Positions 1 through 34,502 of a DNA stretch of 64,000 nt are shown here, piece by piece. The stretch comes from an uncultured Planctomycetota bacterium (lineage in GTDB: Bacteria > Planctomycetota > Planctomycetia > Isosphaerales > Isosphaeraceae), in NCBI GenBank assembly GCA_963845755.1, contig CAWJTV010000024.1:96001-160000 (forward strand). Direction: 5' to 3'. Position 1 is the stretch's first letter. Every line of letters starts with the position of its first letter. Made by a program: the position numbers and the translations under genes. The notes beneath the pieces were generated by a model. The model ran no database searches, was not told where the DNA came from, and saw only the letters and a program-made list of their open reading frames with translations.

Positions 1-806
1 TGTCTGCGTCCAGTGGCCGGAGGTGCTGCGGACCGTCGATCTCTACGTGAAGAAGGGAGTCTTTACTTCCGGCGACGATTACCTCCGCGAATTCGCCGGC
101 AAGAGCAACCTGACCGACTACGTGGCGCGGGAGCTCGGCACCCCGGCGCCGACGGATATCCCGAGATCGGGGGTGCTCCAGCCCTCGGACCTCACCAAGA
201 TCCACCTGGGATGGAGCACCGCGCTGGATGACAAGCACGCCGATTTGTTCCGGGAAGTCAAGCCGCCGCCGGCGGCGAAGAAGGACGTCGACATCCTCTG
301 CCGTGCCTCCCTCCCGAAAGACTGGAGCTCCCCGTTACGCGGCGCGGTCGCCCCGAGGCTGGAACCGCTGCGCGACCGCCGTCGCATCATCCTGTCGATA
401 CCCACCAACCGCGTCCCTCGACGAGAATACTACGACGAATTGCTCCGATAGCCGGATCTGCATCAGCCCGTTCGGTTACGGCGAGGTCTGCGGCCGCGAT
501 ATCGAGGCGACCCTCTGTGGCTGCCTCCTGCTCAAGCCCGACATGGGCCACCTCCGCTCCCATCCGGACATCTTCGTACCCGGCGTGACCTACGTCCCCG
601 TGCGGTGGGATTATGCCGACCTGGCCGAGACTTGCGAGTATTATCTGGACCGGGAAGAGGAGCGAGCCCAGATCGCTGCCAACGCCTACCGGGTATTGGC
701 CAATGCCTACGGTTCCGATGCATTCGTCGCGATGTTTGCCGGCGTGCTCGAGCGGCTCGGGCTCCAATCTGCCGGGCTAGCACACCGAGCCGCCCCTTCG
801 GGATAA
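1..806 (+). CDS. Glycosyltransferase (GT-B/CgeB-like), 5'-truncated by the window edge, frameshifted near 450
   Basis: ORF 23..451 ends ..YYDELLR and continues in another frame as SRICISPFGYGEVCGRDIEATLCGCLLLKPDMGHL..YVPVRWD, a typical GT-B C-terminal motif. Confidence 0.7.
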
Positions 807-1017
807 TCCTCGCGATGAATCGTGCGGTTCACTCATCCTGGCCGCGCCGATCGGCTCGGCTCGCATCACCCGTTGCTCCCGCTTCCGTAGGCGAGACCCG
901 CGACCATGCCGAGCCCCGTCCGGTTCTCGATCGAAGCCAGGCGAGGTCGTAGCACCCCGCGTCTTGTCACCCCTCCGCGGCGATCCCCACACCATCGATC
1001 AAAGGCGACCTGTTGAC

Positions 1018-1941
1018 ATGATTCAAAGTCAAACCGACGATCTGCCGATCATACGGCCGCGGTCCTCCCCCCCTTCGCCGGCGTCCGCGGCCGACCACTC
1101 GCCCGAGGACGAACCGGCCGATACGTTCGAGACGGTGATCCGTCCCCACAAGGGGTGGATCGCCATCGACTGGAAGGAACTGCTCTCTTATCGGGAACTG
1201 CTCTGGTTTCTGCTCTGGCGCGACGTCGTGGTGCGGTACAAGCAGACGATCCTGGGCGGCGCCTGGGCCGTCCTTCAGCCCTTGATGACGATGCTGATCT
1301 TCACCTTCGTCTTCAGCCGTATCGCCAAGCTTCCCTCCGAGGGCTTTCCATACCCGGTGTTCGTCTTCGCGGGCCTGATCCCCTGGACGCTGTTCTCGCA
1401 AGGGATGCCCCAGGCGGCGACGAGTCTCGTGAGCCAACAGCAACTGCTGACCAAGGTCTACTTCCCCCGCCTCTTCGTGCCGACCGCGGCGGCGACCGTC
1501 TACTTGGTCAACCTGGCCATTTCGCTGGTCCTTTATGGGTTCATCCTGCTCTACTATCACGTCGTGCCGGCCTGGACGGCGGTCTTCCTCCCGGTGTTGA
1601 TCTTTCTGACGCTGATCAGCACGCTGAGCCTGGGCTACCTGTTCTCGGCCCTCATGGTATTCTACCGCGACGTCCGCCACGCGATCCCGTTCCTGACGCA
1701 GATGTTCCTGTACGTCTCCTTCGTGATCTACCCCGGGAGCGAGATCAAGAATGATTTATATAGGCATATTCTCTCAATAAATCCGATGTTCGGCCTCATC
1801 ATGGGTTATCGTTCGGCCATCCTGGGGATCCCCTGGGACCGCACCTGCCTGGCGATCTCCACGGCGAGCGCGATGCTGTCGTTCGTCCTCGGCCTCTTCT
1901 ATTTCCGACGCACCGAGCGCCGCTTTGCCGACTTCATCTGA
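1018..1941 (+). CDS. wzm: ABC-2 polysaccharide export permease
   Basis: YRELLWFL.WRD..VRYKQT.LG..WA..QP and LLTKVYFPR motifs, hydrophobic segments, NPM near the C-terminus. Confidence 0.92.
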   Translation: MIQSQTDDLPIIRPRSSPPSPASAADHSPEDEPADTFETVIRPHKGWIAIDWKELLSYRELLWFLLWRDVVVRYKQTILGGAWAVLQPLMTMLIFTFVFSRIAKLPSEGFPYPVFVFAGLIPWTLFSQGMPQAATSLVSQQQLLTKVYFPRLFVPTAAATVYLVNLAISLVLYGFILLYYHVVPAWTAVFLPVLIFLTLISTLSLGYLFSALMVFYRDVRHAIPFLTQMFLYVSFVIYPGSEIKNDLYRHILSINPMFGLIMGYRSAILGIPWDRTCLAISTASAMLSFVLGLFYFRRTERRFADFI

Positions 1942-2018
1942 TGCGTCACGACAGCGGCCGGCTCCCTCCGGCCGCCAGCATCGGGGCTTTCACAGGATCG
2001 AGGATTGGACCATCAACC

Positions 2019-3337
2019 ATGAGCCGACCCATCATCGTCACCGAGAACATCGGCAAGTGTTACAATCTCGGCAAATTACAGCAGTCTTCCATGATGAAAT
2101 CCTACGCTGCCGGGAACTTCACGCTGCGTGAAGCCGTCAGCCGGACGGTGGACGCCGGGTTGCGTCGCCTCAAGGGGGATCGGCGGGAGTCGAACGATCG
2201 AGATAGCGTCTTCTGGGCGCTGCGGGACATCTCCTTCGAAGTCCAGCGGGGCGAGGTGGTCGGGCTGATCGGACGCAACGGCGCGGGCAAATCGACGCTG
2301 CTGAAGATCTTCAGCCGGATCGTCGAGCCGACCGAGGGGTTCGCACGGCTGCGCGGGCGGGTGGCCTCGCTACTGGAAGTGGGCACCGGATTTCATCCCG
2401 AGCTCTCGGGACGCGAGAACATCTACCTCAACGGGGCGATCCTGGGGATGAAGCGGGCCGAGATCGACCGCAAGTTCGATGAGATCGTCGCCTTCGCCGA
2501 ATTCGAGCAATTCCTGGATACGCCGGTGAAGCGCTATTCCTCGGGCATGTGCGTGCGGCTGGCGTTCGCCGTGGCCGCCCACCTCGAGCCCGAGATCCTG
2601 ATCGTCAACGAAGTCCTGGCGGTGGGCGATCACGCGTTCCAGAAGCGATGCCTGGGCAAGATGCACGACGTGGCCTCGGGCGAGGGACGAACCGTCCTGT
2701 TCGTCAGCCACAACATGGGAGTCCTCTCCCAGCTCTGTCAACGGGGGATCTACCTGGAACACGGACAGATCAAGACCGTCGGCCCCATCAAGGATGTGAT
2801 CGAGACCTATCTCCGATCGAGCCTGGATCAGAACTCCGCGCAGCCCAGTTCCCCACCGATCCGGCCAAGGCCGCCCAGTTCGTCTCGGCGGAGATCGTCC
2901 GGAGCGATCGCAGCCTGGGATCGGACTTCAGTTGCGACGAGCCGGTGATCATCCGGCTGCAATACGAGGTGCGCAAGCCGGTCCCCGGCACGTTCCTGAC
3001 CCTCTACCTCCAGAACCTCGAAGGGATCCGCGTCCTGTTTTCCGACATCTGTGACACCAACCCGTCAGCCACCGAGAATCTGGCCACACGACGGCATACC
3101 TTCGAGATCCAAATCCCCCCGAGACTGCTGTCGCCGACGACCTATTTGCTGTCGATCAGCAGCGCCAGCAAGTACATCGGGCCCATCGACCACCAACACG
3201 CCTGCTGCGAGTTCACGCTCCGCGATTTCGCGGTGCCCGAAAAGATCCGGCCCGAGAACCGCCCCGGCGTGCTGGGAATTCGGCTCCCGTGGGAACATCT
3301 GCCGGACCGGGCGGAAACGGTCTCGGCCGCGCCCTGA
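2019..3337 (+). CDS. wzt: Polysaccharide ABC exporter ATPase with Wzt C-terminal domain (frameshift ~2840)
   Basis: Walker [15 protein letters not shown] signature, LFVSH; Walker B reads ILIVNE; C-terminal domain lies in the frame of ORF 2549..3337. Confidence 0.9.
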
Positions 3338-3404
3338 TTCGCGCCGCGGATGTCCCCGAATTCCTGGCGAGACCCCCGAGAACCGACCCGAGGACACCAG
3401 CCGG

Positions 3405-5414
3405 ATGGAAAGCAGTCCCACCCTCATATGCCTCATCATGCTGCTCGGCCTGGCCCCCCTGACCGTGATGTTCTTCATGGTCCTGCCGTCCCGGCGCGCG
3501 ATGGTGCTCGGGGCGATTGTTGCGTCGGTGCTCCTGCCGCCCATCGCCATCGATTTCCCCGGCCTGCCGCCCTACGACAAGTTCATGGCCGCGTCCATCG
3601 GCATCCTGTTCGGCACGCTGATCTTCGACATGGGTCGAATCGTGTCCTTCCGACCCCGCTGGTTCGACCTTCCGATCCTTTTGTTCTGCCTGAGCCCCTA
3701 TGCCTCCTCGATTTCTAACAACCTGGGACCATACGATGGCCTGTCTGCCTCGTTCCGCCAGACGGTCCAATGGCTGCTCCCCTACCTGATCGGGAGACTG
3801 TATCTCACCGACGCCGAGAGCTTCCGGGAGCTCGCAACCGGCATGATCATCAGCGCGGTCTGCTTGCTGCCCTTCTGCTTCCTCGAGATGAGGATCGGCG
3901 CCCAATTGCAGCAGCGAATCTACGGCACTGGCGGATGGGAGGGTATGAGGGACGGCGGCTATCGCCCCCGGCTCTTCTTCCAATCCGGGCTCGCGCTCGG
4001 GCTCTGGATGAGCACGACAACGCTGTTGGCCTGGTGGTTCTGGCGAGTGGGCCGGTTCCGAGCGTTGTGGGGATTGCCGGCCGGCAGCGTGATTCTGCCC
4101 GCCCTGGCGATCACCTCGCTCCTGTGTAGAGCCCGAGGCGCGACACTCCTGGGCCTCACTGGCTGTTTCGCGCTCTGGTCCTGCCCGCGGTTCAAGTCCA
4201 AATGGATAATGTGGGGCCTGCTGGCCATCGCACCGACCTATTGCTTCCTTCGCATCACAAACCTCTGGACGGGCGAGAACGTCGTCAACCTGCTCGAGGC
4301 GTATGTCAGCAAGGAACGATCCATTTCGGTCGATGCGCGTCTACGACAAGAAGACGTGCTCATCGTGAGAGCCCTGAAGCAACCGATCTTCGGCTGGGGC
4401 GGCTATAATCGGGCCCGCATCCTCGAGGATGAAATCACGGATGCCAGGGTCGCGGTCGGCGTCCAGGATCGCATCAGATACCTGCAGAATGTCAACTCAC
4501 TCTGGAGCATCGTTCTCGGAGAGCAAGGATTCGTCGGCCTGATGACAATGACGATCGCGATGACCCTGCCGGTGATCCTGTTCCTGGTGCGCTTTCCCGT
4601 GGGACAGTGGGGCCACCCCGCCCTGGCCCCCGTCACCGTGATGGCCGTGATCCTGTCTCTCTTCCTGCTCGATAGCCTGGCCAACGCGATGCTCAACCCG
4701 ATCTATCTCATGATCGCGGGCGGGCTGCTCAACATCAACCCGGCCCGCGTCAGGCTGGAGGCATCAGCTCGTGTCGCCGGGTCGCGCACGGCGAGCGGTG
4801 GCCGGGACGAGGCAACCGTCGCGGTCGCCACCGGGTCCCTGGTTCCCGGCAACGACCTGGCGGCTCGCTATCAGTCCCTGGGACGCGCCGCGAAGGATCG
4901 CGGTGAACTCTGCGAGGCGGAGGCTGCCTGGCAGCATGCGCCTCGACCTCCTGGCCAGGTCGCTGGCGATCCATCGCGAGCATCCGGCGCTCCGCCGGCG
5001 TTGGTGCGACTGCGCCAATGACCTGGCCTGGCTGTTGGCCTGCGCGGCGGATCCGGCCGTCCGCGACCCTGCCGGCGCCGTAGCACTGGCCGCCAGGACG
5101 GTCGAGAGGATCCCGAGTGCAGCACCTACTGGAATACCCTGGGGGTGGCCCACTATCGTGCCGGCAATCTCCGGGCCGCGATCGCCGGCCTCGACCAGGC
5201 CACCGCCCTGGGTAACGGGGGCACCGCCTTCGACCATGTCTTCCTGGCCATGGCCCATGCGCGGTTGGGCAACCCGGACGACGCTCGACGGTGGTTCAAC
5301 CTGACGCTGATCGAGATGGAACAGGATCCACCGGGTCATGCGGAATTATGCCGTCTCTGCGAGGAAGCCAGTACCCTCCTGTCCGCAGCCTCCACCGCAA
5401 TCGCCGCTCCTTGA
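3405..5414 (+). CDS. O-antigen ligase/polymerase-like membrane protein with C-terminal TPR extension (frameshifts ~4940 and ~5120)
   Basis: Multiple TM segments with YRP.LFF, P.FGWGG and SLW...LGEQG motifs; downstream frames give NDLAWLLA..WNTLGVAHYRAG..FLAMAHARLG (TPR). Confidence 0.75.
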
Positions 5415-25410: not shown

Positions 25411-26078
25411 CGAGGACTCCGAGACTCCCGCGTCAGGCGGGCCGGGTTTCCGGCAACCGTGTTCCGTGGTCAGCATGGCATGGCGACGGACTTGCCGGGG
25501 CGGCATCATCGGCCGGGGATCGCCCTGACCGCCTGGAACGACCCCCGATCCCTCACCGGGCATTCGCCCGCTTCGCATGGGGCCATCGCCCCGTGATGAT
25601 CGCGGCGCAAGTTGGCATATCTTGCCAGCTTTTTGGCGGAGCTCCATCCCCGATCTCTCTGGTTGGAAATGAGTTGTGGCGAGCCTGCGAATCCGTCGGC
25701 GCAGTCCGACGGCCCGTCTGGGGAGTGATCGCGCGTAGGTCATACTATTAGGATGCCGCAACTTTTCGAAAGCGTTAATGCACCTAGCGCCGACTTAGGC
25801 CGTTGAGACTCCCGAACTCTCGACTTCGGCGGCAGATACGAAAATCCAAAAAAAATTCAAGGCGGGTGATTAACCGACCTCCCGGTGCTCCTGAAGGGAC
25901 GGGTGCGTGGCGAGGACTCATCCTGGTATAACCCAAATTCATCGCCAGACAGGTGACGGGACGGTTATTTCTTGGAGAGGATCCGGTCGAGCTGGTCGGG
26001 GATCTCCAGGTTCAAGGTGGACAGCCTGTGTCTCAGCTCCTCGAGATAGTCGAAGTTGAACTGAGAGTCGGTTCCAAA

Positions 26079-26210
26079 AGCCCCAGAGGGGCGACCGGAC
26101 GTAGCCAGGGGCGTGAGCCCCTGGACGATCGACCGCGACCCCCTCGACCGTCGTTCGAGACCCGGAGGAGCGACAGACGTCCTCAGGGCCACAGAGTTTC
26201 TGTCGCCCCT
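26079..26210. repeat. Left part of a REP-like palindromic element (insertion target)
   Basis: 30-bp arm 26099-26128 is the exact reverse complement of 34028-34057; inner arm AGACCCGGAGGAGCGACAGA pairs with the reconstructed TCTGTCGCCCCT|CCGGGGCT. Confidence 0.85.
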
Positions 26211-26272
26211 ACCTTCTAGACATATGTCTGACCGGGTACAATCGGTCAACACTTGTTTAGGAGGTCTGGCCT

Positions 26273-27091
26273 ATGGGCGTTCGCAATCGAGACCGCGAAG
26301 TCATTGAGCGGTTGGATTCCAAGACCCTCGATGCTCGCTTTACCACTGAGATCGAGCAGGGACTTAACTGTTCCCCCTTCGAGTCCGAAGCCGTTCTCGG
26401 CGTCGTCAAAGAGGTCTACTTTCCCTTCCTCTCCGCCGAGGCCACCACGCCTTCCCCAGGGAAGATCTCGCTCATGGCGGTCGCCGCGGACGAGCCGGCC
26501 GGAAAGCCCGTCGCCGCCTGTCAAAAGCAGACCGTCTGCCTCACACTCCATCGCGGCAAGATCGACGATCTCTTGTTTCAGCAACACGGCCCAGCCGGCT
26601 TTCGCCGGGCTCGAATCCTCGACCTTTGCCAACAGGCCCTCAGTCAAGGAGCCTTGCTCACCGCTGAAGACCTCGCCTATCGCGTCTTCTTCGTCACACC
26701 GCGAACCATCTCGCGCGACCTGATCGCGGTCCGCCAGGCCCACCCCGATGTCCTGATCCCGATGCGCAGTACGCTCCACGACCTCGGACCGGTCCTCACC
26801 CATCGCACTCAAATCGTCCGCCTTGCACTCCAAGGCAAGACCACGTCGCAGATCTGCCAGATCATGCACCACTCTCCCGAAGCGGTCGCCAACTACCTGT
26901 CCACCTTCGCGCGCTGCGCTCAACTCGCCCACAAGGAGATGCAAGCCGGGCAGATCGCCTTCCTCCGCCGCCGCGGGGTCTCCCTCGTCAACGCCTATCT
27001 CCAGATCCTGGAGGAATGCCGGCGCGATCGCAACATGGCCTATCATCTGGACGAACTCCTCAGGATCGGCTCCTGCGGCGGCGGAAAAAAA
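26273..27091 (+). CDS. DUF1670 protein A (3' end interrupted by an IS)
   Basis: A..QGALLT.EDLA..RTI.RD..P.R..HD.G..TH R..HS.EAV..Y pattern; AGGAGG RBS and TACAAT upstream. Confidence 0.8.
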
Positions 27092-28796
27092 CTAGGCTGG
27101 CAAAAGTGGCTGGAAAGCCCTCCGGGAGCGTAGAAAGAGGAGATCGAACCCCGGGAGGAATCCACCCATGCGCAAACGACGACAACGACCACGCCCGCAA
27201 CCGGACCGGGCCCTGACCCTGACGCCGGTCCTTCTTGACTGCCCCGAATGCCAGCACCGGACCTATGCCGACTACAATAACTATCGCACCATCAGTACTC
27301 TCGACGGCGTCTTCCGACTGACCCTGACCATCCGACGCTGCCCCAATCCCACCTGCCCCCGCTTCCTCCGCCCCTATCGGCCCGAGGCCGAGCCCCACTT
27401 CGCCTTGCCTTATCATGAGTTCGGACTCGACGTCATGGCGCTGGTCGGCCGGCTCCGCTATGCCGAGCACCGCAGCATCCCCGAGATCCACCGCGAGCTC
27501 ACGCACCGCGGGCTCATCCTGGCCGAACGCACCGTCACCAACCTGTTGGACCGCTACGACGAGCTGCGGTCCCTGGCCACGGCCGATCCCCAGCGACTCG
27601 GTCCGCTGTTGCGCCCGCAGGGCCGCGTCATCCTGGCCATCGACGGCCTGCAGCCGGATGTCGGCCACGAGGTCCTCTGGGTGCTGCGCGACTGCCTCTC
27701 CGGCGAGATCCTCCTGGCCAAGAGCCTGCTGTCGTCCACGGCCCAGGACCTGGCCGGCCTGATCGACCAGGTGCGGAAGGTCCTGCCGGTGCCGATCACC
27801 GGCGTGGTCTCCGACGGTCAGGAGAGCATCCGCAACGCCGTGGCTATCGCCCTCAAAGGTGTCCCCCATCAGCTCTGCCATTTCCACTACTTCCGCGAGG
27901 CGGCCAAGCCGATCTACGAGGCGGATCGCCACGCCAAGAAGGAGTTGAAGAAGCGGGTGCGGGGCATCCGGAAGATCGAGCGCCAGGCGGAGAAGGAGCT
28001 GGAGGACGACGCGGAGGACGCGGAGGCGGAGGTGGTGCGGGACTACTGCGCCGCGGTGCGCGGGGCCTTGACCGACGACGGACTGCCACCGCTTTCGGCC
28101 TCCGGGCTGAAGCGGCAGGATCGATTGAGCCGGATTGCCGCCAGCTTGGACGATGTCGTCGCCAAGGCGGGCGACCTGCCCGGGGGTTTGAAACGGCTGA
28201 GGCAATTGCTGCGGCGCGGGCTGGAGGAGACGGCCGCGCTGTTCCCGGCGGTGCGCGAGTCGTACCAATGGGTCAAGCGCGCCGCCCGGATCCTCAAGAA
28301 CGAGGAGGGGCTGCCGGCGAAGAAGGTGCGACGGCGGCTGGTGCAACTGCTGGCGCGAATGCGCCGGGCGGTGGCGACGACGGACGAGCCCGCGGTGCGG
28401 GCGGGTTTGAAGCAGTTCGTGAAGGTGACCCGGAGCTACTGGCCGGGCTTGTTTGCCTGCTACGAGTCGTCGGATCTGCCGCGGACGAATAACGACCTGG
28501 AGCACACCTTCGGCAGTCATCGCTACCACGAGCGCCGGGCCAGCGGTCGGCGTCGGGGGTCGCCGGGCCTGGTGGTGATGGGCTCGGCGCGGGTGATCTC
28601 GGGGCTGGCGACGCGGCTGCGGCCGGACGAAGGCTTGGTGTTGAGCCCGGGCTATGTTGAGGACTGGCAGGAATGGCGCGCGGAGTTGGAGGTGCGACGG
28701 GAATCGCGGCGGAAGCAACGCCGGTTCCGTCACAATCCCGAGGCCTATCTCAAGGACTTGGAGCAACGCTGCCTCCAGCTAACTTTGCCAGCCTAG
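27092..28796 (+). mobile_element. Insertion sequence (ISNCY-like) inside the DUF1670 element
   Basis: Terminal IRs CTAGGCTGGCAAA / TTTGCCAGCCTAG; A7 on both flanks. Confidence 0.88.
27168..28796 (+). CDS. Transposase (DDE-type, ISNCY-like)
   Basis: CPEC..RRCPNP.C zinc ribbon, AIDGLQPD, VSDGQ, QLCHFH, PRTNNDLE; the stop lies in the terminal CTAG. Confidence 0.88.
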   Translation: MRKRRQRPRPQPDRALTLTPVLLDCPECQHRTYADYNNYRTISTLDGVFRLTLTIRRCPNPTCPRFLRPYRPEAEPHFALPYHEFGLDVMALVGRLRYAEHRSIPEIHRELTHRGLILAERTVTNLLDRYDELRSLATADPQRLGPLLRPQGRVILAIDGLQPDVGHEVLWVLRDCLSGEILLAKSLLSSTAQDLAGLIDQVRKVLPVPITGVVSDGQESIRNAVAIALKGVPHQLCHFHYFREAAKPIYEADRHAKKELKKRVRGIRKIERQAEKELEDDAEDAEAEVVRDYCAAVRGALTDDGLPPLSASGLKRQDRLSRIAASLDDVVAKAGDLPGGLKRLRQLLRRGLEETAALFPAVRESYQWVKRAARILKNEEGLPAKKVRRRLVQLLARMRRAVATTDEPAVRAGLKQFVKVTRSYWPGLFACYESSDLPRTNNDLEHTFGSHRYHERRASGRRRGSPGLVVMGSARVISGLATRLRPDEGLVLSPGYVEDWQEWRAELEVRRESRRKQRRFRHNPEAYLKDLEQRCLQLTLPA

Positions 28797-29453
28797 AAAA
28801 AAATCACTCGTGGGAGGTCCGCCCATGAGTAGCAAACCTGACTTCATCCGCAAGAAATACGGCCCCCTCCGCGAGAAGACCTTGCGGAACGCACTCGCCC
28901 ACCGGATCGTCAAGGAGTTCCCGCGAATTGGAGGAAACCGCATCTGTCAATTGTGCGCAGATATGATACTTGAAGTTGTCTTCAAACATATGCGCCCAAA
29001 GACCACCTCGTTCACGGCCAGGCGCTCTGGATGGCCGTCAGCCTCAACGACCCGCCCGGTCGTCGCCAACGCATCGCGGACGTTCGACCTGATCCCCGTC
29101 CTCCTCGAGATCTCCACCGCCGAGGACGCGCAACGGCGCATCGATCGCCTCCCCGCTCCTCAACGCTTGTTGTGCAAGGCCGTCCGCCTCTGCGAGCAGG
29201 CCTACAAACAGGGGGGATTGCTCTCCAACTGCGACCTCGCCGAGCTGCTCGGCGTTGACGACAGTCGGATCGCTCATGTGCTGGCCGAGCATGAGCGCCT
29301 CACCAGCACCGTCATCCCACGACGCGCCACACTCCACGATGTCGGAACAGGATTGACTCATAAGCGGATTATTTGCTGGAAGCGATACGCCGAAGGCAAG
29401 GAGCCGCATGTTGGGACCGATCTTTGATTCGGCAGCGCTTTCGATCATTGGAC

Positions 29454-29615
29454 CGGCAGCGCCTTCGTCTGGTTCCCAGCGCGGCACTTCTGACCGTTTG
29501 TCTCTCCGTTCTCGTTCTCGAGAGGGCGATCGCTTCAACGGCAGCGCCTTCGTCTGGTTCCCAGCGCGGCACTTCTGACCGTTTGTCTTGCCGTCCTTGT
29601 TCTCGAGAAGACGAT
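29454..29615 (+). repeat. ~85-bp tandem duplication with a 50-bp identical core at the IS21 left end
   Basis: 29454-29503 is identical to 29539-29588. Confidence 0.9.
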
Positions 29616-29713
29616 ATACTGGCATGTCAGCGTCGGGTCTGCGTTGGAATAGCGCTCGAGGAGAACGCGATCAACATTCTCCCCGAGCTTTTCCCTCGAG
29701 AGTAGCCGCTCCC

Positions 29714-30291
29714 GTGGGCACTCCTCACGTTACGAAACGATACCGCCGTCTGCCCAGAGGCCGCCGACCGCGCCCACGGATCTGCCTGCGCAAAGGTTGC
29801 CGACGCAAGTACCAGCCGCGATGCTGGAACCAGCGCTACTGCCAGGACCCGGAATGCCTGCGGGAAGTCCGCCGTTGGCAAGCGGCTCGCCGCCAGGCAA
29901 AACGCCGCCAAGACGCCCGCGCCAAAGCCCAGCATGCCCAGGCCGAGAAACAGCGCCGCCAGCAAGCCAAAGCCACGCCCAAAGCTATTGAGAACCCGGA
30001 CGTTGCGCCCGCGCGTGGTCACGCAGCAGAAAATTTTTCCCCCACCCCTTCTGCGATCGGCCTGGCTGCTACCAACCCCCGGTGAACTCATCGCGCAACC
30101 CGGCTCGCTACTGCGGCACCGCCTGCCGTCAGGCCGTTCGCAACGTCCGGGACCGCGAACGTAAGTGGCTCGCTCGCGGCACCTTGGATGGCCGGAACAA
30201 GCGCGCCATCGAATACCAGGCCGCACACCGCAATCGATCCCGGTGTCAGCAAGACACCACCGATCGGCCACCCCGGTCACCGCCGCTATGA
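29714..30291 (+). CDS. IS21 accessory Cys-rich protein(s): two overlapping ORFs, 29714-30085 and a -1 frame to 30291
   Basis: CLRKGC..YCQDPEC and CDRPGC..YCGTAC modules. Confidence 0.55.
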
Positions 30292-30388
30292 CGACCCTTC
30301 CCCCAAGGCGCCGGTCGTCAATTATCGCGTGGTACCGGCAGACTGCTTTAGCCTGGGCATCCTGTTGTTCACCCCCAGGAGCCCCAGC

Positions 30389-30802
30389 ATGATACCCAAG
30401 CGCATTCTGGTTCCCCACCGACTGCGGCGGCCTCCCGCAACCGGTTGGTCCTGGCTCGACGGTCGCTTCGTGCGCGAGCACATGGACCAGCTCTCACGCG
30501 AGGCCGTGCTGTTGTACTTCTTTCTGTCAGCCGTGGCCGATGTCAACGGCCTGTCCTTCTACAGCGATGGCACCCTGGCCGCTCGGTTGCGCATCCCCCT
30601 GCCCAGCTTGCTCCAGGCCCGTGACGAGCTTTTGGCCTACGACCTGATCGCCTACGAACCGCCGTTAACCCAGGTCCTTTCCTTGCCTCCGCGCTGTCAA
30701 CGCCGCAGATCCGAGCCCGGCGGCGGGCTGATGCAACTGGGCGATATCCTGCGCCAGGCTATCGCGTCGACACCTCTTGACAAGGAAAGGAGTCAGCCAT
30801 GA
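30389..30802 (+). CDS. Small HTH-like accessory protein upstream of istA
   Basis: WSWLD.RF..LLYFFL.AVAD..GLSFY pattern; ATGA overlap with istA. Confidence 0.7.
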   Translation: MIPKRILVPHRLRRPPATGWSWLDGRFVREHMDQLSREAVLLYFFLSAVADVNGLSFYSDGTLAARLRIPLPSLLQARDELLAYDLIAYEPPLTQVLSLPPRCQRRRSEPGGGLMQLGDILRQAIASTPLDKERSQP

Positions 30803-32308
30803 AGGTGGCCTTGTGGGCCGAGATTCGTCGCCTGGCCGAGATCGAGAACCTCTCCGCTCGGGCCATCGCCGGGCGACTTCACTGTTCCTGCCGCACGGTC
30901 GCTCGAGCGCTCCAGTTGCAGCAGCCTCCCACTCACCGCGACCCCTGCCGTGTCAGTTCCTTGGACCCCTACAAGTCCAAGATCGACGCCCTGCTGGCCC
31001 AGTATCCCGAGCTGTCGGCGGTGCGCGTCCACGAGGAGATCGCTCGCGGTCCCAATGGCTACACCGGCAGCGTGATTACCGTCCGCCGCTACGTGCGGTC
31101 CCTTCGCCCCGCGCGGTCGCGTCTATCAAGAAGTCCACTACGAACCGGCTCAGGCCATGCAGGTCGACTGGGGCGAATGCGGCCACGTCCAACTCGGGAC
31201 CACGACCCGCAAGGTCTCGGTCTTGGTGGCCGTCCTCTGCTACAGCCGGATGACCTACATCGAATTCACCCTCTCGCAGCGCAAGGCGGAATTCTATCGC
31301 GGCCTGGTGCACGCCCTGGAGTTCTTTGGTGGCAGTCCCCGTGCCATCATCTTCGACAACTTGAAAGCGGCCGTGATCAATGGCTCCGGCCGCGCGGCCT
31401 GCTTCCATCCCGAGTTCCTGGCGCTCTGCGGCCACTACTACTTGCAGCCGATCGCCTGCCAACGGCGCGATCCGGAATCCCAGGGGATTGTCGAAGGGGG
31501 CGTGCGCTACGTGAAACGAAACGCCCTGGCCGGTCGCAGCGACGAGCTCGTCCGCTTCGAGGACTACCTCGCGCTGGCACCCCGGTGGCGCGACGAGATT
31601 GCCAACGTCCGGATTCATGAGACGACTCGAGAACGCCCGGTAGACCGGTTTCATCACGAGCGATCGCGGCTCCGCGCACTTCCCACGATCCCGTTTGACA
31701 CCGCCGAGATCGTGCTGGCGGTTGCCAGTCCCCATGCGCGGGTCAAGTTCGATGCGAACCGTTACTCGGTGCCGCCGCACCTGGCGCGGCAGACGGTCAC
31801 GATTCGCGCCGACGGTCAGGAAGTCGGCATCGTGCACCAGGGCCAAGTCGTGGCCCGGCATTCCCGCTGCTACGGGCGCCGGCAACTGATCGTGCTGCCC
31901 GAGCACCGCACCGCGGCACTGAGTATGGGCCGGCGGTCGCCGAGCTCGGCGCTGGAACAGGCCTTTGATGCCCTCGGCCCCGAGGCTCGGCAGTTCCACC
32001 TCGGCCTGAACCGCCAGCCGGTGCAGACGGGGGTCCATCTGCGACGCTTGCTGGGTCTGGCGCGCGTCTACGGCACGGCCGAGGTGGTCTCGGCCATCGC
32101 CCGGGCCCTGGAGCTGGCGGCCTATGACGCGGCCTACGTCGAGAACCTTCTCCTGGCGGAGCGGCGGCGCCGGCAGCTTCCCACACCCACACTGCCGACT
32201 CCCAAACGGCGCGAATTGATTGACGAGATCGATTTGGAACCGACGGATCCCGGCATTTACGACCGCTTCTGTAACACCAGCGACGAGGACTCTGATGGCA
32301 CGGCGTGA
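30799..32308 (+). CDS. istA: IS21 transposase (frameshift ~31115)
   Basis: LDPYK..I, QVDWG, LCYSR, FDNLKAAV, G.VE..V.YVK, R.H.TT.ERP, N.YSVP. Confidence 0.92.
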
Positions 32309-33065
32309 GGATAATCTCCAGGCACGGCTCGACCGCGACCTGGCCGAATTGAAGCTGTGAGAGATCGCCAAGAGCTACCGCGACGTCCTCGACGAAGCCG
32401 CTCGCAAAGGGAGCTCCTTCTTGGAAGTTCTGGCGATCCTGATCGGGGCTGAACAGGCCGCCCGTGAGCAACGAGCTCTGGAGCGTCGGCTGCGTGAGGC
32501 GCGGCTTCCCAAGCCAAAGACCCTGGCTGAATACGACTTCAGGTTCCCCAAGCGAATCCCCAAGGCCGCGATCGTGCGCTTGTTCGACTGCGACTTCATC
32601 GAGCAGCACGGCTGTGCCGTTCTGATTGGGCCGACCGGAACGGGCAAGTCCCATCTTCTCACGGCACTGGGTTACACAGCCGTTGAGCGTGGCCATTCGG
32701 TTCGCCATACGCGTGTGGTGGACATGATCAATCATCTGACCGCGGCCCAGCTCAATGGGTCGCTGGGCAAAACGCTCCGAAGTTATGTCCGTCCCAGTCT
32801 TCTCCTCCTTGATGAGCTGGGCTATCTGCCCATCGACAAGCGTGGGGCCGATTTGTTGTTCCAGGTTGTCGCCGCCCGTTATGAAGTGGGATCGATCGTG
32901 ATCACCACGAATCGACCGTTCCGGGAATGGGGCAAACTCTTCGATGTGGACAACACCCTGGCCACGGCCTTGATCGACCGGCTGATGCATCACGGGGAGG
33001 GGATCGTGATTCAAGGAGACAGTTATCGCATGAAAGACAAAGATCCCGATTCGACCGACGAGTGA
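32295..33065 (+). pseudogene. istB: IS21 helper ATPase with an in-frame TGA at 32358
   Basis: GPTGTGKSH, LLLLDELGY, ITTN..F.EW, DRL.H; the N-terminus from ATG 32295 is in frame across one stop. Confidence 0.88.
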
Positions 33066-33774
33066 CCAAATCGCGGTACGCCAACGTCCGGATCGGGTGT
33101 TCGACGCGATGAGAGTGGTTTCGGCGTGAGTGGTGGGGATCGTCCAGCCCACCCTTGAGCCAACCCAGCCACCGTGCTGGGTCACTCGAGCGGCCGGTTC
33201 CTTGAAGGGCGGGCTCGCGTTGGCTCCAGGCTCTGATCCAGAATCCGCGAGCAGCTTCCTGCGGGGGGCTTCGTCTCGGCGGCCTGGTCATCCTGTTTGC
33301 GGCCCGTGACGGTTCGCAGCGAGGAATTGGCGGTGGCCCCGGCCACCACGCCGGACTCAACAAGCGCGAACGCCTGGCCGGCTCGTCCGTTCCGGGCTTT
33401 GCCACGCTCAACTCCAGGTTCGAATGGACTCCGCGCTTTTCGCAACGTGCCGAGTGGTGCTGGTGTACGCGCCCATCGCGCCACACCCTCCGCAACCCGC
33501 AGCGCGCTGCCGTCCTGGTGATCGAAAACGACGCCATCTCGATGATCGGTCCCACATGTCGTCGCTCGCGAGACCTACCACAGCCTTGAGGCGGTCAACC
33601 GTTACCTCGGCCAGTACGATCGCGTCCGTCATTGCCGTCTGGAGGGGCTCACGCCCGAGCAGACCGCTCACGCCTTGGGGTGCGGCCTGCCTCTGGTGAA
33701 GGAGTACCTCGCCATCGACGACCTGCTGGAGACGCGTCGCACTTGACACGAGGGCTCCTCTCCCGCCGATAATC

Positions 33775-33960
33775 GCGGTTGGCAGGCGAGAGGATAGGGC
33801 TCTGCTGAGGAGCAACCCGAGCGCTCGTCCTGCTGCCGAAACATGGCTGGGGGCCTCCCTGATCCGGAGGCCCCCGCTGTGTCGCTCCCTTGCCATGTTT
33901 TGGCTCCAATGCGTTAAACCTTCGTGATTGGGGCGTAGCCCCAACCACGATTCTTTTGTT
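33775..33960 (+). ncRNA. Putative structured ncRNA in the right end of the DUF1670 element
   Basis: TTGACA (33743) and GATAAT (33768) with a 19-nt spacer; stems 33835-47/33892-904 and 33849-58/33866-75; terminator-like hairpin 33922-33950 followed by TTCTTTTGTT. Confidence 0.55.
33922..33960 (+). terminator. Intrinsic terminator-like hairpin
   Basis: TCGTGATTGGGGC-GTA-GCCCCAACCACGA followed by a T-rich tail. Confidence 0.65.
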
Positions 33961-33997
33961 CAGATCAAGCCGCGCGGTCAGACATATGTCCGGATCT

Positions 33998-34080
33998 CCG
34001 GGGCTCCCCGAATCGGGGGAACCCGCCTCGTCCAGGGGCTCACGCCCCTGGCTACGTGCTTCCGCCCCCATCCGGGGGCT
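33998..34080. repeat. Right part of the REP-like palindromic element
   Basis: Reverse complement of the 26079-26128 arms. Confidence 0.85.
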
Positions 34081-34502
34081 CAGGAAGGGACTTAGGGAAC
34101 AGACTCTGATGGGCGCCCGGGGCGTGCCAGAAGATGTAACGTTCCTTGTACTGGAAGTCGAGGTGGGCGACCGCCATGCTCGTGTCCTGGTAGATCCAGA
34201 TGGCGATCACCGTCCGCGAGGCGGAGTCCCTGGCGAAGGCCGAAGGGGTGAAGATTTCGATCTGCTTTCCCTGCTGCATCCCCTGCAATACCGCCCGAAC
34301 GGCCGACCGGCTCCGGTGCGCTGATCGCGCACGATTGCCCCTCGGGATGACCGCGAGCTCGTACTGCCCGACCGGGATGGTCCGGTGAAGCAGATCAGGC
34401 AGCAACGGAAAAGACTGGAAACTTGGTCTGACCCCGACCTGCCATTTACGACTTCCGAGCAAGCTCGAAGGCCAAGGCCAGCTCCTTGTCTTCTCCCTCT
34501 AG

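Follow-up and report, generated by a model that had tools for sequence, protein, structure and literature searches.

What moves an insertion sequence (IS) whose only genes of its own are two members of the DUF1670 family? The question is raised by an element at positions 26209-33997 of a 64,000-nt stretch of DNA (the window; positions 96,001 to 160,000 of contig CAWJTV010000024.1, assembly GCA_963845755.1) from an uncultured bacterium of the Isosphaeraceae (Planctomycetota). An initial annotation, made from the letters of the sequence, had described a mobile element with IS1111-like architecture and without a recognisable transposase, and had proposed that the DUF1670 pair is the recombinase of an undescribed family. 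The assignment to a family of mobile elements without a published description is strongly supported by the comparisons reported here. The explanation towards which we lean is that the element is a decayed copy of an IS of about 1.93 kb, belonging to an undescribed family, whose own machinery is the tandem DUF1670 pair, the open reading frames (ORFs) A and B. We infer from gene content that this pair may act as the recombinase.

The element carries two later insertions, an IS that seeks A-runs (nested IS 1) and a member of the IS21 family. Its length without them (7789 - 1705 - 7 - 4143 - 5) is 1929 bp, with non-coding ends of 62 bp on the left and 248 bp on the right, which agrees with the about 1.93 kb, 62 bp and about 250 bp estimated initially; intact relatives measure 1923-1937 bp from CT to CT. 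The perfect 16-bp inverted repeats described in the initial annotation are also seen in the sequence. They are sub-terminal, with 8 bp (ACCTTCTA) outside the left repeat and 5 bp (CGGAT) outside the right one. The features of the locus are as follows (plus, forward strand; minus, reverse strand).

26061..26208, unstranded: left part of the host repeat, delimited by BLAST of the flanks against the genome and by empty copies
26079..26124, minus: match to Acido-Lenti-1 (RF01687) in the left outer arm (47.3 bits, E 1.9e-08)
26209..26210, plus: left CT, single in empty sites; 2-bp duplication or crossover core
26211..26218, plus: left 8-bp extension ACCTTCTA, outside the inverted repeat, kept in relatives and miniature copies
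26219..26234, plus: left sub-terminal inverted repeat GACATATGTCTGACCG, whose first 10 bp, GACATATGTC, are a palindrome in themselves
26273..27091, plus: ORF A (DUF1670; PF07900, E 6.6e-36), only its last few codons lost, to the nested IS in the A-run
27085..27091, plus: left half of the A-run at the A/B junction (right half at 28797-28803); exactly A9 in close relatives
27092..28796, plus: nested IS 1, with 23-nt inverted repeats and a 542-aa transposase (27168-28796)
28825..29411, plus: first part of ORF B (DUF1670), 29 codons scrambled by a 1-nt loss and a 1-nt gain
29412..33554, plus: nested IS21-family element, CATGT on both flanks
33560..33747, plus: last part of ORF B (stop at 33745-7; PF07900, E 6e-08), colinear with the intact sister copy
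33743..33773, plus: promoter-like boxes TTGACA-N19-GATAAT, found by eye, overlapping the ORF B stop
33778..33926, plus: structured non-coding RNA with two helical domains, from covariation and covariance model R1
33923..33961, plus: GC-rich hairpin followed by a T-rich run, terminator-like by eye (computed fold); missing in several relatives
33975..33990, plus: right sub-terminal inverted repeat, pairing perfectly with the left one
33991..33995, plus: right 5-bp extension CGGAT, kept in relatives
33996..33997, plus: right CT, from junction comparison with empty sites and relatives
33998..34110, unstranded: right part of the host repeat, with an Acido-Lenti-1 match at 34032-34080 (plus; 37.9 bits)

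ORF B starts with the ATG at 28825, which corrects the initial annotation. Relative to a sister copy elsewhere in the genome, it has lost 1 nt at 28995-7 and gained 1 nt at 29083, so that 29 codons are scrambled without a stop arising. Because ORF B is split and scrambled and the end of ORF A is lost, the window copy is unable to move by itself.

The sequence into which the element is inserted is a palindrome of about 260 bp, present in at least 16 copies in the 14.3-Mb genome, and the insertion point lies in its inner right arm. A single CT occupies this point in 13 of the 15 other copies of the host repeat, and 11 of the 15 are the same as the restored site over gtcgccc-CT-ccggggc. The CT thus stands on both sides of the element and once in empty sites, which means that the insertion was precise, as the initial annotation had claimed. 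Its description of the restored palindrome held for the outer arms, which match over 41 nt at 90% and contain a perfect 30-nt core (the core by reading of the sequence), but not fully for the inner arm at 26158-26177, which equals the restored site at 18 of 20 positions and is imperfect in the window copy. The target of the element and its close relatives is GCCC-CT-nnGGGGC, a short hairpin-like site of about 12-13 bp, entered in one orientation. A match to Acido-Lenti-1 lies at most about 200 bp from the element in 4 of 20 related loci. This 'small RNA' of Rfam, which has a table row in PMC2864571, is here part of a many-copy palindromic repeat into which mobile elements insert. In this genome Acido-Lenti-1 looks more like DNA of the repetitive extragenic palindromic (REP) or miniature inverted-repeat transposable element type than like a stand-alone RNA gene.

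The element is mobile, site-specific and polymorphic in nature. A second copy, 99.5% identical, is located at a different site on another contig of the same genome, in what reads as a HEAT-repeat-like gene; two other ISs have entered its ORF A, and its ORF B is intact. No counterpart of the gene flanking this copy was found in 40 related genomes, and its presumed empty site is deduced solely from the frame in which the interrupted gene reads. Between A and B, the window copy is about 46 bp shorter than the sister copy. In the latter the spacer (L001 5705-5770; G000 C20) contains about 46 additional bp, among them 25 consecutive A, which neither the window copy nor the relatives have. If at most one mismatch is allowed, the 16-bp repeat is found at eight places in the genome, four of which belong to the two elements and four to miniature copies. 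These miniatures, 119-121 bp long, share only the ends with the element and occupy GCCC-CT/TT ... CT-nnGGGGC sites; one of them occupies the corresponding site of a further host-repeat copy.

Relatives in other genomes and metagenomes show the same behaviour. Homologues of ORF B numbered 1420 at E <= 0.001, mostly on contigs of 1-3 kb, and the best 120 of them were 79-89% identical. Across the 80 metagenome contigs that make up the close-relative set, the ends are conserved and the junctions read ...GCCC-CT-ACCTTCTA-repeat ... repeat-CGGAT-CT-nnGGGGC, the left junction ending in CCC in 27 of the 30 tabulated cases. Several of the metagenome contigs begin or end within a few bases of the element's ends, which is the usual behaviour of repeats in assemblies. 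One related genome contains two intact copies, each in a different target-type site. In addition, positions 514 and 2454 of an intact relative are joined in a soil contig that lacks the 1939 bp in between, with 2 letters shared; the shorter side of this empty junction is just 21 letters long and the target itself is repeated. Defined ends and empty sites, whose absence from homologous DUF1670 pairs had been named in the initial annotation as a point against its proposal, are therefore both found among the relatives.

The two DUF1670 genes are the only genes conserved in these elements, in the copies of this genome, in the relatives and in distant loci alike, which bears out the view of an undescribed mobile family built on the pair. 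The Pfam DUF1670 profile (PF07900; curated cut-off 25 bits) matched ORF A with 124.2 bits (E 6.6e-36) and the two pieces of ORF B with 73.8 bits (1.6e-20) and 32.8 bits (6e-08); the intact ORF B of the sister copy scored 143.4 bits. Matches in this genome are confined to the two element copies. Among other genomes, the profile was found in 4 of 400 sampled from the phylum and 10 of 120 belonging to the family. A profile-free search with ORF A gave 1113 cluster representatives at E <= 0.001. The 80 loci from named genomes, which came from a distant search with alignment A2, are distributed over ANME-1 and other methanogen-related Archaea, Lentisphaerota, Verrucomicrobiota, Planctomycetota, Desulfobacterota, Chloroflexota and others. 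Of the distant loci, 68 had room for another gene downstream, and 63 of these carried a further DUF1670 member in the same orientation; inverted repeats enclose the pair over a span of 1.7-1.9 kb. These repeats vary between subfamilies, with a TATGTC/TATGAC-like core kept. The longest antisense open frame follows the G+C content (66-136 aa at G+C <= 0.42, up to 340 aa at 0.65), so that no hidden third gene is seen. Fused DUF1670 proteins of 523-546 aa (two repeats) and 930-952 aa (three repeats) hold only DUF1670, and none of 11 long relatives is fused to a catalytic domain.

The junction between the two genes is itself conserved. In 24 of 56 loci, including all close relatives, a run of exactly A9 lies 30 nt before ORF B, which is in the +1 frame and whose start overlaps the stop of ORF A; A8 with ORF B in the -1 frame was found in 7 loci, and at least A5 in 55 of the 56. 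Since the nine-A run is kept in GC-rich DNA, it suggests slippage that would yield an A-B fusion. Searches of NCBIfam, PADLOC and a protein atlas produced helix-turn-helix hints at most, and homologues from named sources are annotated as "hypothetical protein" or "DUF1670". Full-text literature searches, which did not cover ISfinder, found no paper on the DUF1670 (PF07900) family.

In the mechanism that we propose, the A and B proteins, each consisting of a small N-terminal domain and three helix-turn-helix modules, would bind the sub-terminal repeats with their TATGTC/TATGAC core and bring the two ends together. Strand breakage and rejoining would take place at distances of 8 and 5 bp outward from the repeats, with an overlap of 2 bp, and the whole process would amount to conservative site-specific transposition, probably via an excised circle. 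Slippage on the A-run would produce an A-B fusion, as in elements of the IS1 and IS3 types, and natural fused genes exist in other lineages. Candidate residues for the chemistry would be limited to the invariant R165, H177, H200 and Y208, which belong to no known catalytic fold. We would go further only tentatively, somewhat short of even confidence, and suggest that the pair or its fusion may represent a new class of transposase or recombinase. Such an enzyme would be made almost wholly of helix-turn-helix modules, with an Arg/His/His/Tyr active site in or beside the DNA-reading helix, and would, in Archaea as well as in Bacteria, insert conservatively and in one orientation into small hairpins of DNA, with a 2-bp overlap.

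Parts of this scheme recall known systems. In IS1 and IS3, two consecutive ORFs are joined by a slippery A-run and the downstream ORF carries the DDE domain. Slippage on an A-run could likewise fuse the two ORFs of the DUF1670 element, whereas A and B differ from these in being paralogues of each other. Elements of the IS630/Tc1-mariner type have a 2-bp flanking repeat at TA, paired helix-turn-helix modules and a DDE domain. They are similar to the present element in the 2-bp flank at a fixed dinucleotide and in the helix-turn-helix modules, and the Pax paired domain was among the weak rows of the fold search. In contrast to them, the DUF1670 element gave no sign of a DDE domain in Pfam or among the rows listed in the fold searches, uses CT instead of TA, shows unequal flanks in 7 of 26 cases and has a target conserved over about 12 bp.

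Several results weigh against catalysis by the pair. The structural model of ORF A (pLDDT, the predicted local distance difference test, 88.3) comprises three helices and a beta-hairpin in residues 1-95, a long helix, a winged helix at 104-171 and two helix-turn-helix units at 172-254; the whole 286-aa chain is thus made of helical modules and one beta-hairpin. Foldseek returned nothing at E <= 0.001 for the whole ORF A protein or its N-terminal domain. A wide structural search with the ORF A model, of the kind that the initial annotation had recommended, gave DNA-binding modules only and no nuclease or recombinase fold; the best row was NiaR (Z 6.2, root-mean-square deviation 1.6, 56 residues aligned). 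The N-terminal domain modelled alone (pLDDT 73.7) reached a best Z of 5.0, its top rows being HU/IHF-like, weak and non-significant, and a sequence search of the Protein Data Bank found winged-helix regulators only (best E 0.009). Six residues are invariant across proteins of 27-64% identity (Q125, R165, G172, H177, H200 and Y208 in ORF A numbering), and they map to the wing or linker and to helix-turn-helix units, where contact with DNA alone is possible. The motif R-x3-H-D-x-G-x3-T-H-[RK], offered as catalytic in the initial annotation, is real and conserved but lies in the wing/linker after the winged helix; its second candidate, H-S-x-E-A-V-x2-Y, corresponds to the turn and recognition helix of a helix-turn-helix, the alternative that it had itself mentioned. 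The invariant R...H...H...Y order is reminiscent of tyrosine recombinases and maps to the linker and helix-turn-helix, and an integrase was absent from the fold-search rows. Both copies in this genome, which is 88% complete, are broken. The circle junction that the initial annotation had proposed to look for, or a tandem junction, was not found in 209 loci, the genome or four contig runs, contigs being known to drop rare forms. The prediction of an A + B complex scored 0.04 against a mark of 0.32, which is evidence neither way.

The flanking dinucleotides also belong here. Among 26 elements or miniatures readable on both sides, 19 had equal pairs (CT/CT in 17, TT/TT in one and CG/CG in one) and seven had unequal ones (CT/CA in four, CC/CG, CT/TT and TT/CT in one each). 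CT/CA flanks were present in both of two sister elements at different sites. Such unequal flanks are not predicted by plain staggered-cut duplication: a filled-in staggered cut yields equal pairs only, whereas a mismatch-tolerant exchange over a 2-bp overlap can yield unequal pairs and pass them on. Strand exchange across a 2-bp overlap would therefore fit the unequal pairs. A 1-bp repeat of C, with the element starting with T, was considered as well; it fits most junctions and fails for CG/CG and CT/TT, and the 2-bp overlap was kept.

The competitor of DUF1670 catalysis that deserves most attention, although we regard it as unlikely, is that the DUF1670 proteins are confined to end and target recognition and to DNA bending, while a widespread host recombinase, topoisomerase or structure-specific nuclease cuts and joins. 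Host Xer recombinases are used in this way by some integrating elements. All parts of the proteins that can be recognised are DNA-binding modules, the N-terminal domain has the HU/IHF-like rows mentioned above, non-significant as they are, and the long relatives are free of catalytic-domain fusions, all of which would suit such a division of labour. However, the family spans Archaea and many bacterial phyla, so that the borrowed enzyme would have to be near-universal and act on a 2-bp overlap, and we know of no host enzyme of this kind. Moreover, the ends and targets vary between subfamilies while the protein core is fixed, and six invariant residues at 27-64% identity are more than ordinary DNA-binding proteins usually keep. 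We consider it very improbable that an unlinked transposase, for example an IS110/IS1111 enzyme, moves the element as a non-autonomous passenger with the DUF1670 genes as cargo. The genome does contain IS110-type DEDD genes (PF01548) at five places, along with many other ISs, and miniatures exist though both DUF1670 copies are broken. Yet all five DEDD genes are away from the eight copies of the 16-bp repeat (in the 88% of the genome that is covered), so that the same ends flanking an IS110 transposase elsewhere, which the initial annotation had considered a sign of a passenger, were not seen in this genome. The repeat is restricted to the two elements and four miniatures, and units of about 1.9 kb with nothing but the pair recur on hundreds of contigs across domains; cargo would not stay so uniformly linked. 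Within the element, Pfam recognised in A and B only DUF1670 and helix-turn-helix families, in line with the original statement that no DEDD/RuvC-fold protein is encoded.

We give an equally small chance to an RNA-guided element like those of IS1111/IS110 with their seekRNA or bridge RNA, in which an RNA from the right end would pair with the target and the ends. The anatomy is indeed IS1111-like, as was first noted: the repeats are sub-terminal, with extensions of unequal length, the non-coding end downstream of the genes is long, the target is palindromic and a long duplication is lacking. According to PMC11187229, elements of the IS1111 group have sub-terminal inverted repeats with a left extension of 7 bp and a right one of 3 bp, and ISPa11 targets REP sequences. 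The IS1111 group of IS110 (for example ISEc11, ISPa11 and ISKpn4) resembles the DUF1670 element in its unequal extensions (8 and 5 bp here), in the long RNA-encoding non-coding region downstream of the genes and in entering folded or palindromic targets at a single exact position and in a single orientation, without a long target duplication. It differs in that the DUF1670 element has no DEDD/RuvC-type transposase and no circle junction seen in contig data, and in that its RNA has promoter-like boxes of its own, occurs in the IS3 family and shows no match to the target by eye.

The right end does encode a conserved, covarying RNA, with compensatory changes in 19 of 35 pairs of an 18-sequence alignment. 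Covariance model R1 matched 65 of the 80 metagenome loci, every time downstream of ORF B, and the RNA had no Rfam match. The spacer between the promoter-like boxes is 19 nt in the window copy and 16 nt in most relatives; a promoter/terminator consensus scan with spacers of 16-18 nt made no call in 33650-34050. Model R1 also detected four further copies in the genome (C33:530419-530550, C12:126894-127030, C34:536483-536616 and C48:6173-6275; G000, L174-L177), three of them in the 3' end of an IS3-family element of the DDE type with an A7G frameshift motif and an rve-type orfB. Of the family's other genomes, 120 were examined and 59 contained the RNA, as against 10 of 120 for DUF1670; the highest number of copies in a single genome was 25. 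In four soil runs the RNA is covered 20-60 times as deeply as the remainder of the element, and the sequence next to it varies. It is absent from the miniature copies, and the non-coding right ends of distant subfamilies are too short for it (about 90 bp in L106), judging from coordinates rather than from model R1. Because the RNA is present in IS3-family elements and absent from miniatures, it is probably not a guide but a module common to insertion sequences, regulatory or hitch-hiking. Complementarity of the RNA to the target or the ends was sought by eye; the only matches were of 6 nt in a hairpin dispensable in relatives and in the non-covarying ACCUUC, and no conserved complement of the target was seen. 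A hairpin that resembles the target (GGGGCG/AGCCCC) is lost or altered in relatives that use the same target. As a family that is not in Rfam, the RNA is carried by the right ends of two unrelated IS families.

A parallel for such an RNA is available in ISPpu9. In the abstract of PMC12288879, this REP-targeting IS is described as having the small-RNA gene Ssr9 downstream of its transposase gene, with extra Ssr9 copies elsewhere; Ssr9 is dispensable for transposition of ISPpu9 and behaves as a hitch-hiker. The location downstream of the element's genes and the extra copies in the genome are features shared with the right-end RNA. Unlike the DUF1670 element, ISPpu9 encodes an IS110-family enzyme according to this source, and the extra RNA copies found here are inside another IS family and not stand-alone.

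The DUF1670 element is small, widespread and very site-specific, and genome annotation at present misses it. To our knowledge, prokaryotic transposases fall into a handful of classes (DDE, DEDD, HUH, serine, tyrosine and Cas1), and the genes of the element fit none of them. If it is true that the pair does the chemistry, it would form a new class of enzymes as well as a compact inserter of DNA at specific sequences; if a host enzyme is borrowed, this would be a new way of life for an insertion sequence. Experimental handles are provided by natural intact copies, 119-bp miniatures as substrates, a 13-bp target and a short list of invariant residues.

Some minor observations concern the left end and the nested insertions. 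At 26229-26248 a hairpin TGACCG ... CGGTCA is followed by a T-rich run and was called terminator-like by a scan tool. This structure, which shares sequence with a TACAAT box and with the outer half of the inverted repeat, could serve as a block to read-in transcription or as a second protein-binding site. Nested IS 1 is flanked by seven A on each side, and its 542-aa transposase has a weak likeness to the IS66 and IS256 types. The genome contains 15 near-full copies of it, and all five that were examined sit in runs of 7-8 A. This preference for A-runs explains its insertion at the A/B junction, and since it always sits in A-runs, the original length of the run in the window copy is irrecoverable. 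A similar IS end is found at the same A-run in a related element (locus L044). The nested IS21-family element has 51-nt inverted repeats, an istA split over two frames and an istB with an in-frame stop, both by reading of the sequence. It also contains extra ORFs at 29588-30085 and 30188-30802 that match nothing in Pfam. Its left end has 85-bp tandem repeats, and a copy on contig C40 is 99.95% identical to it.

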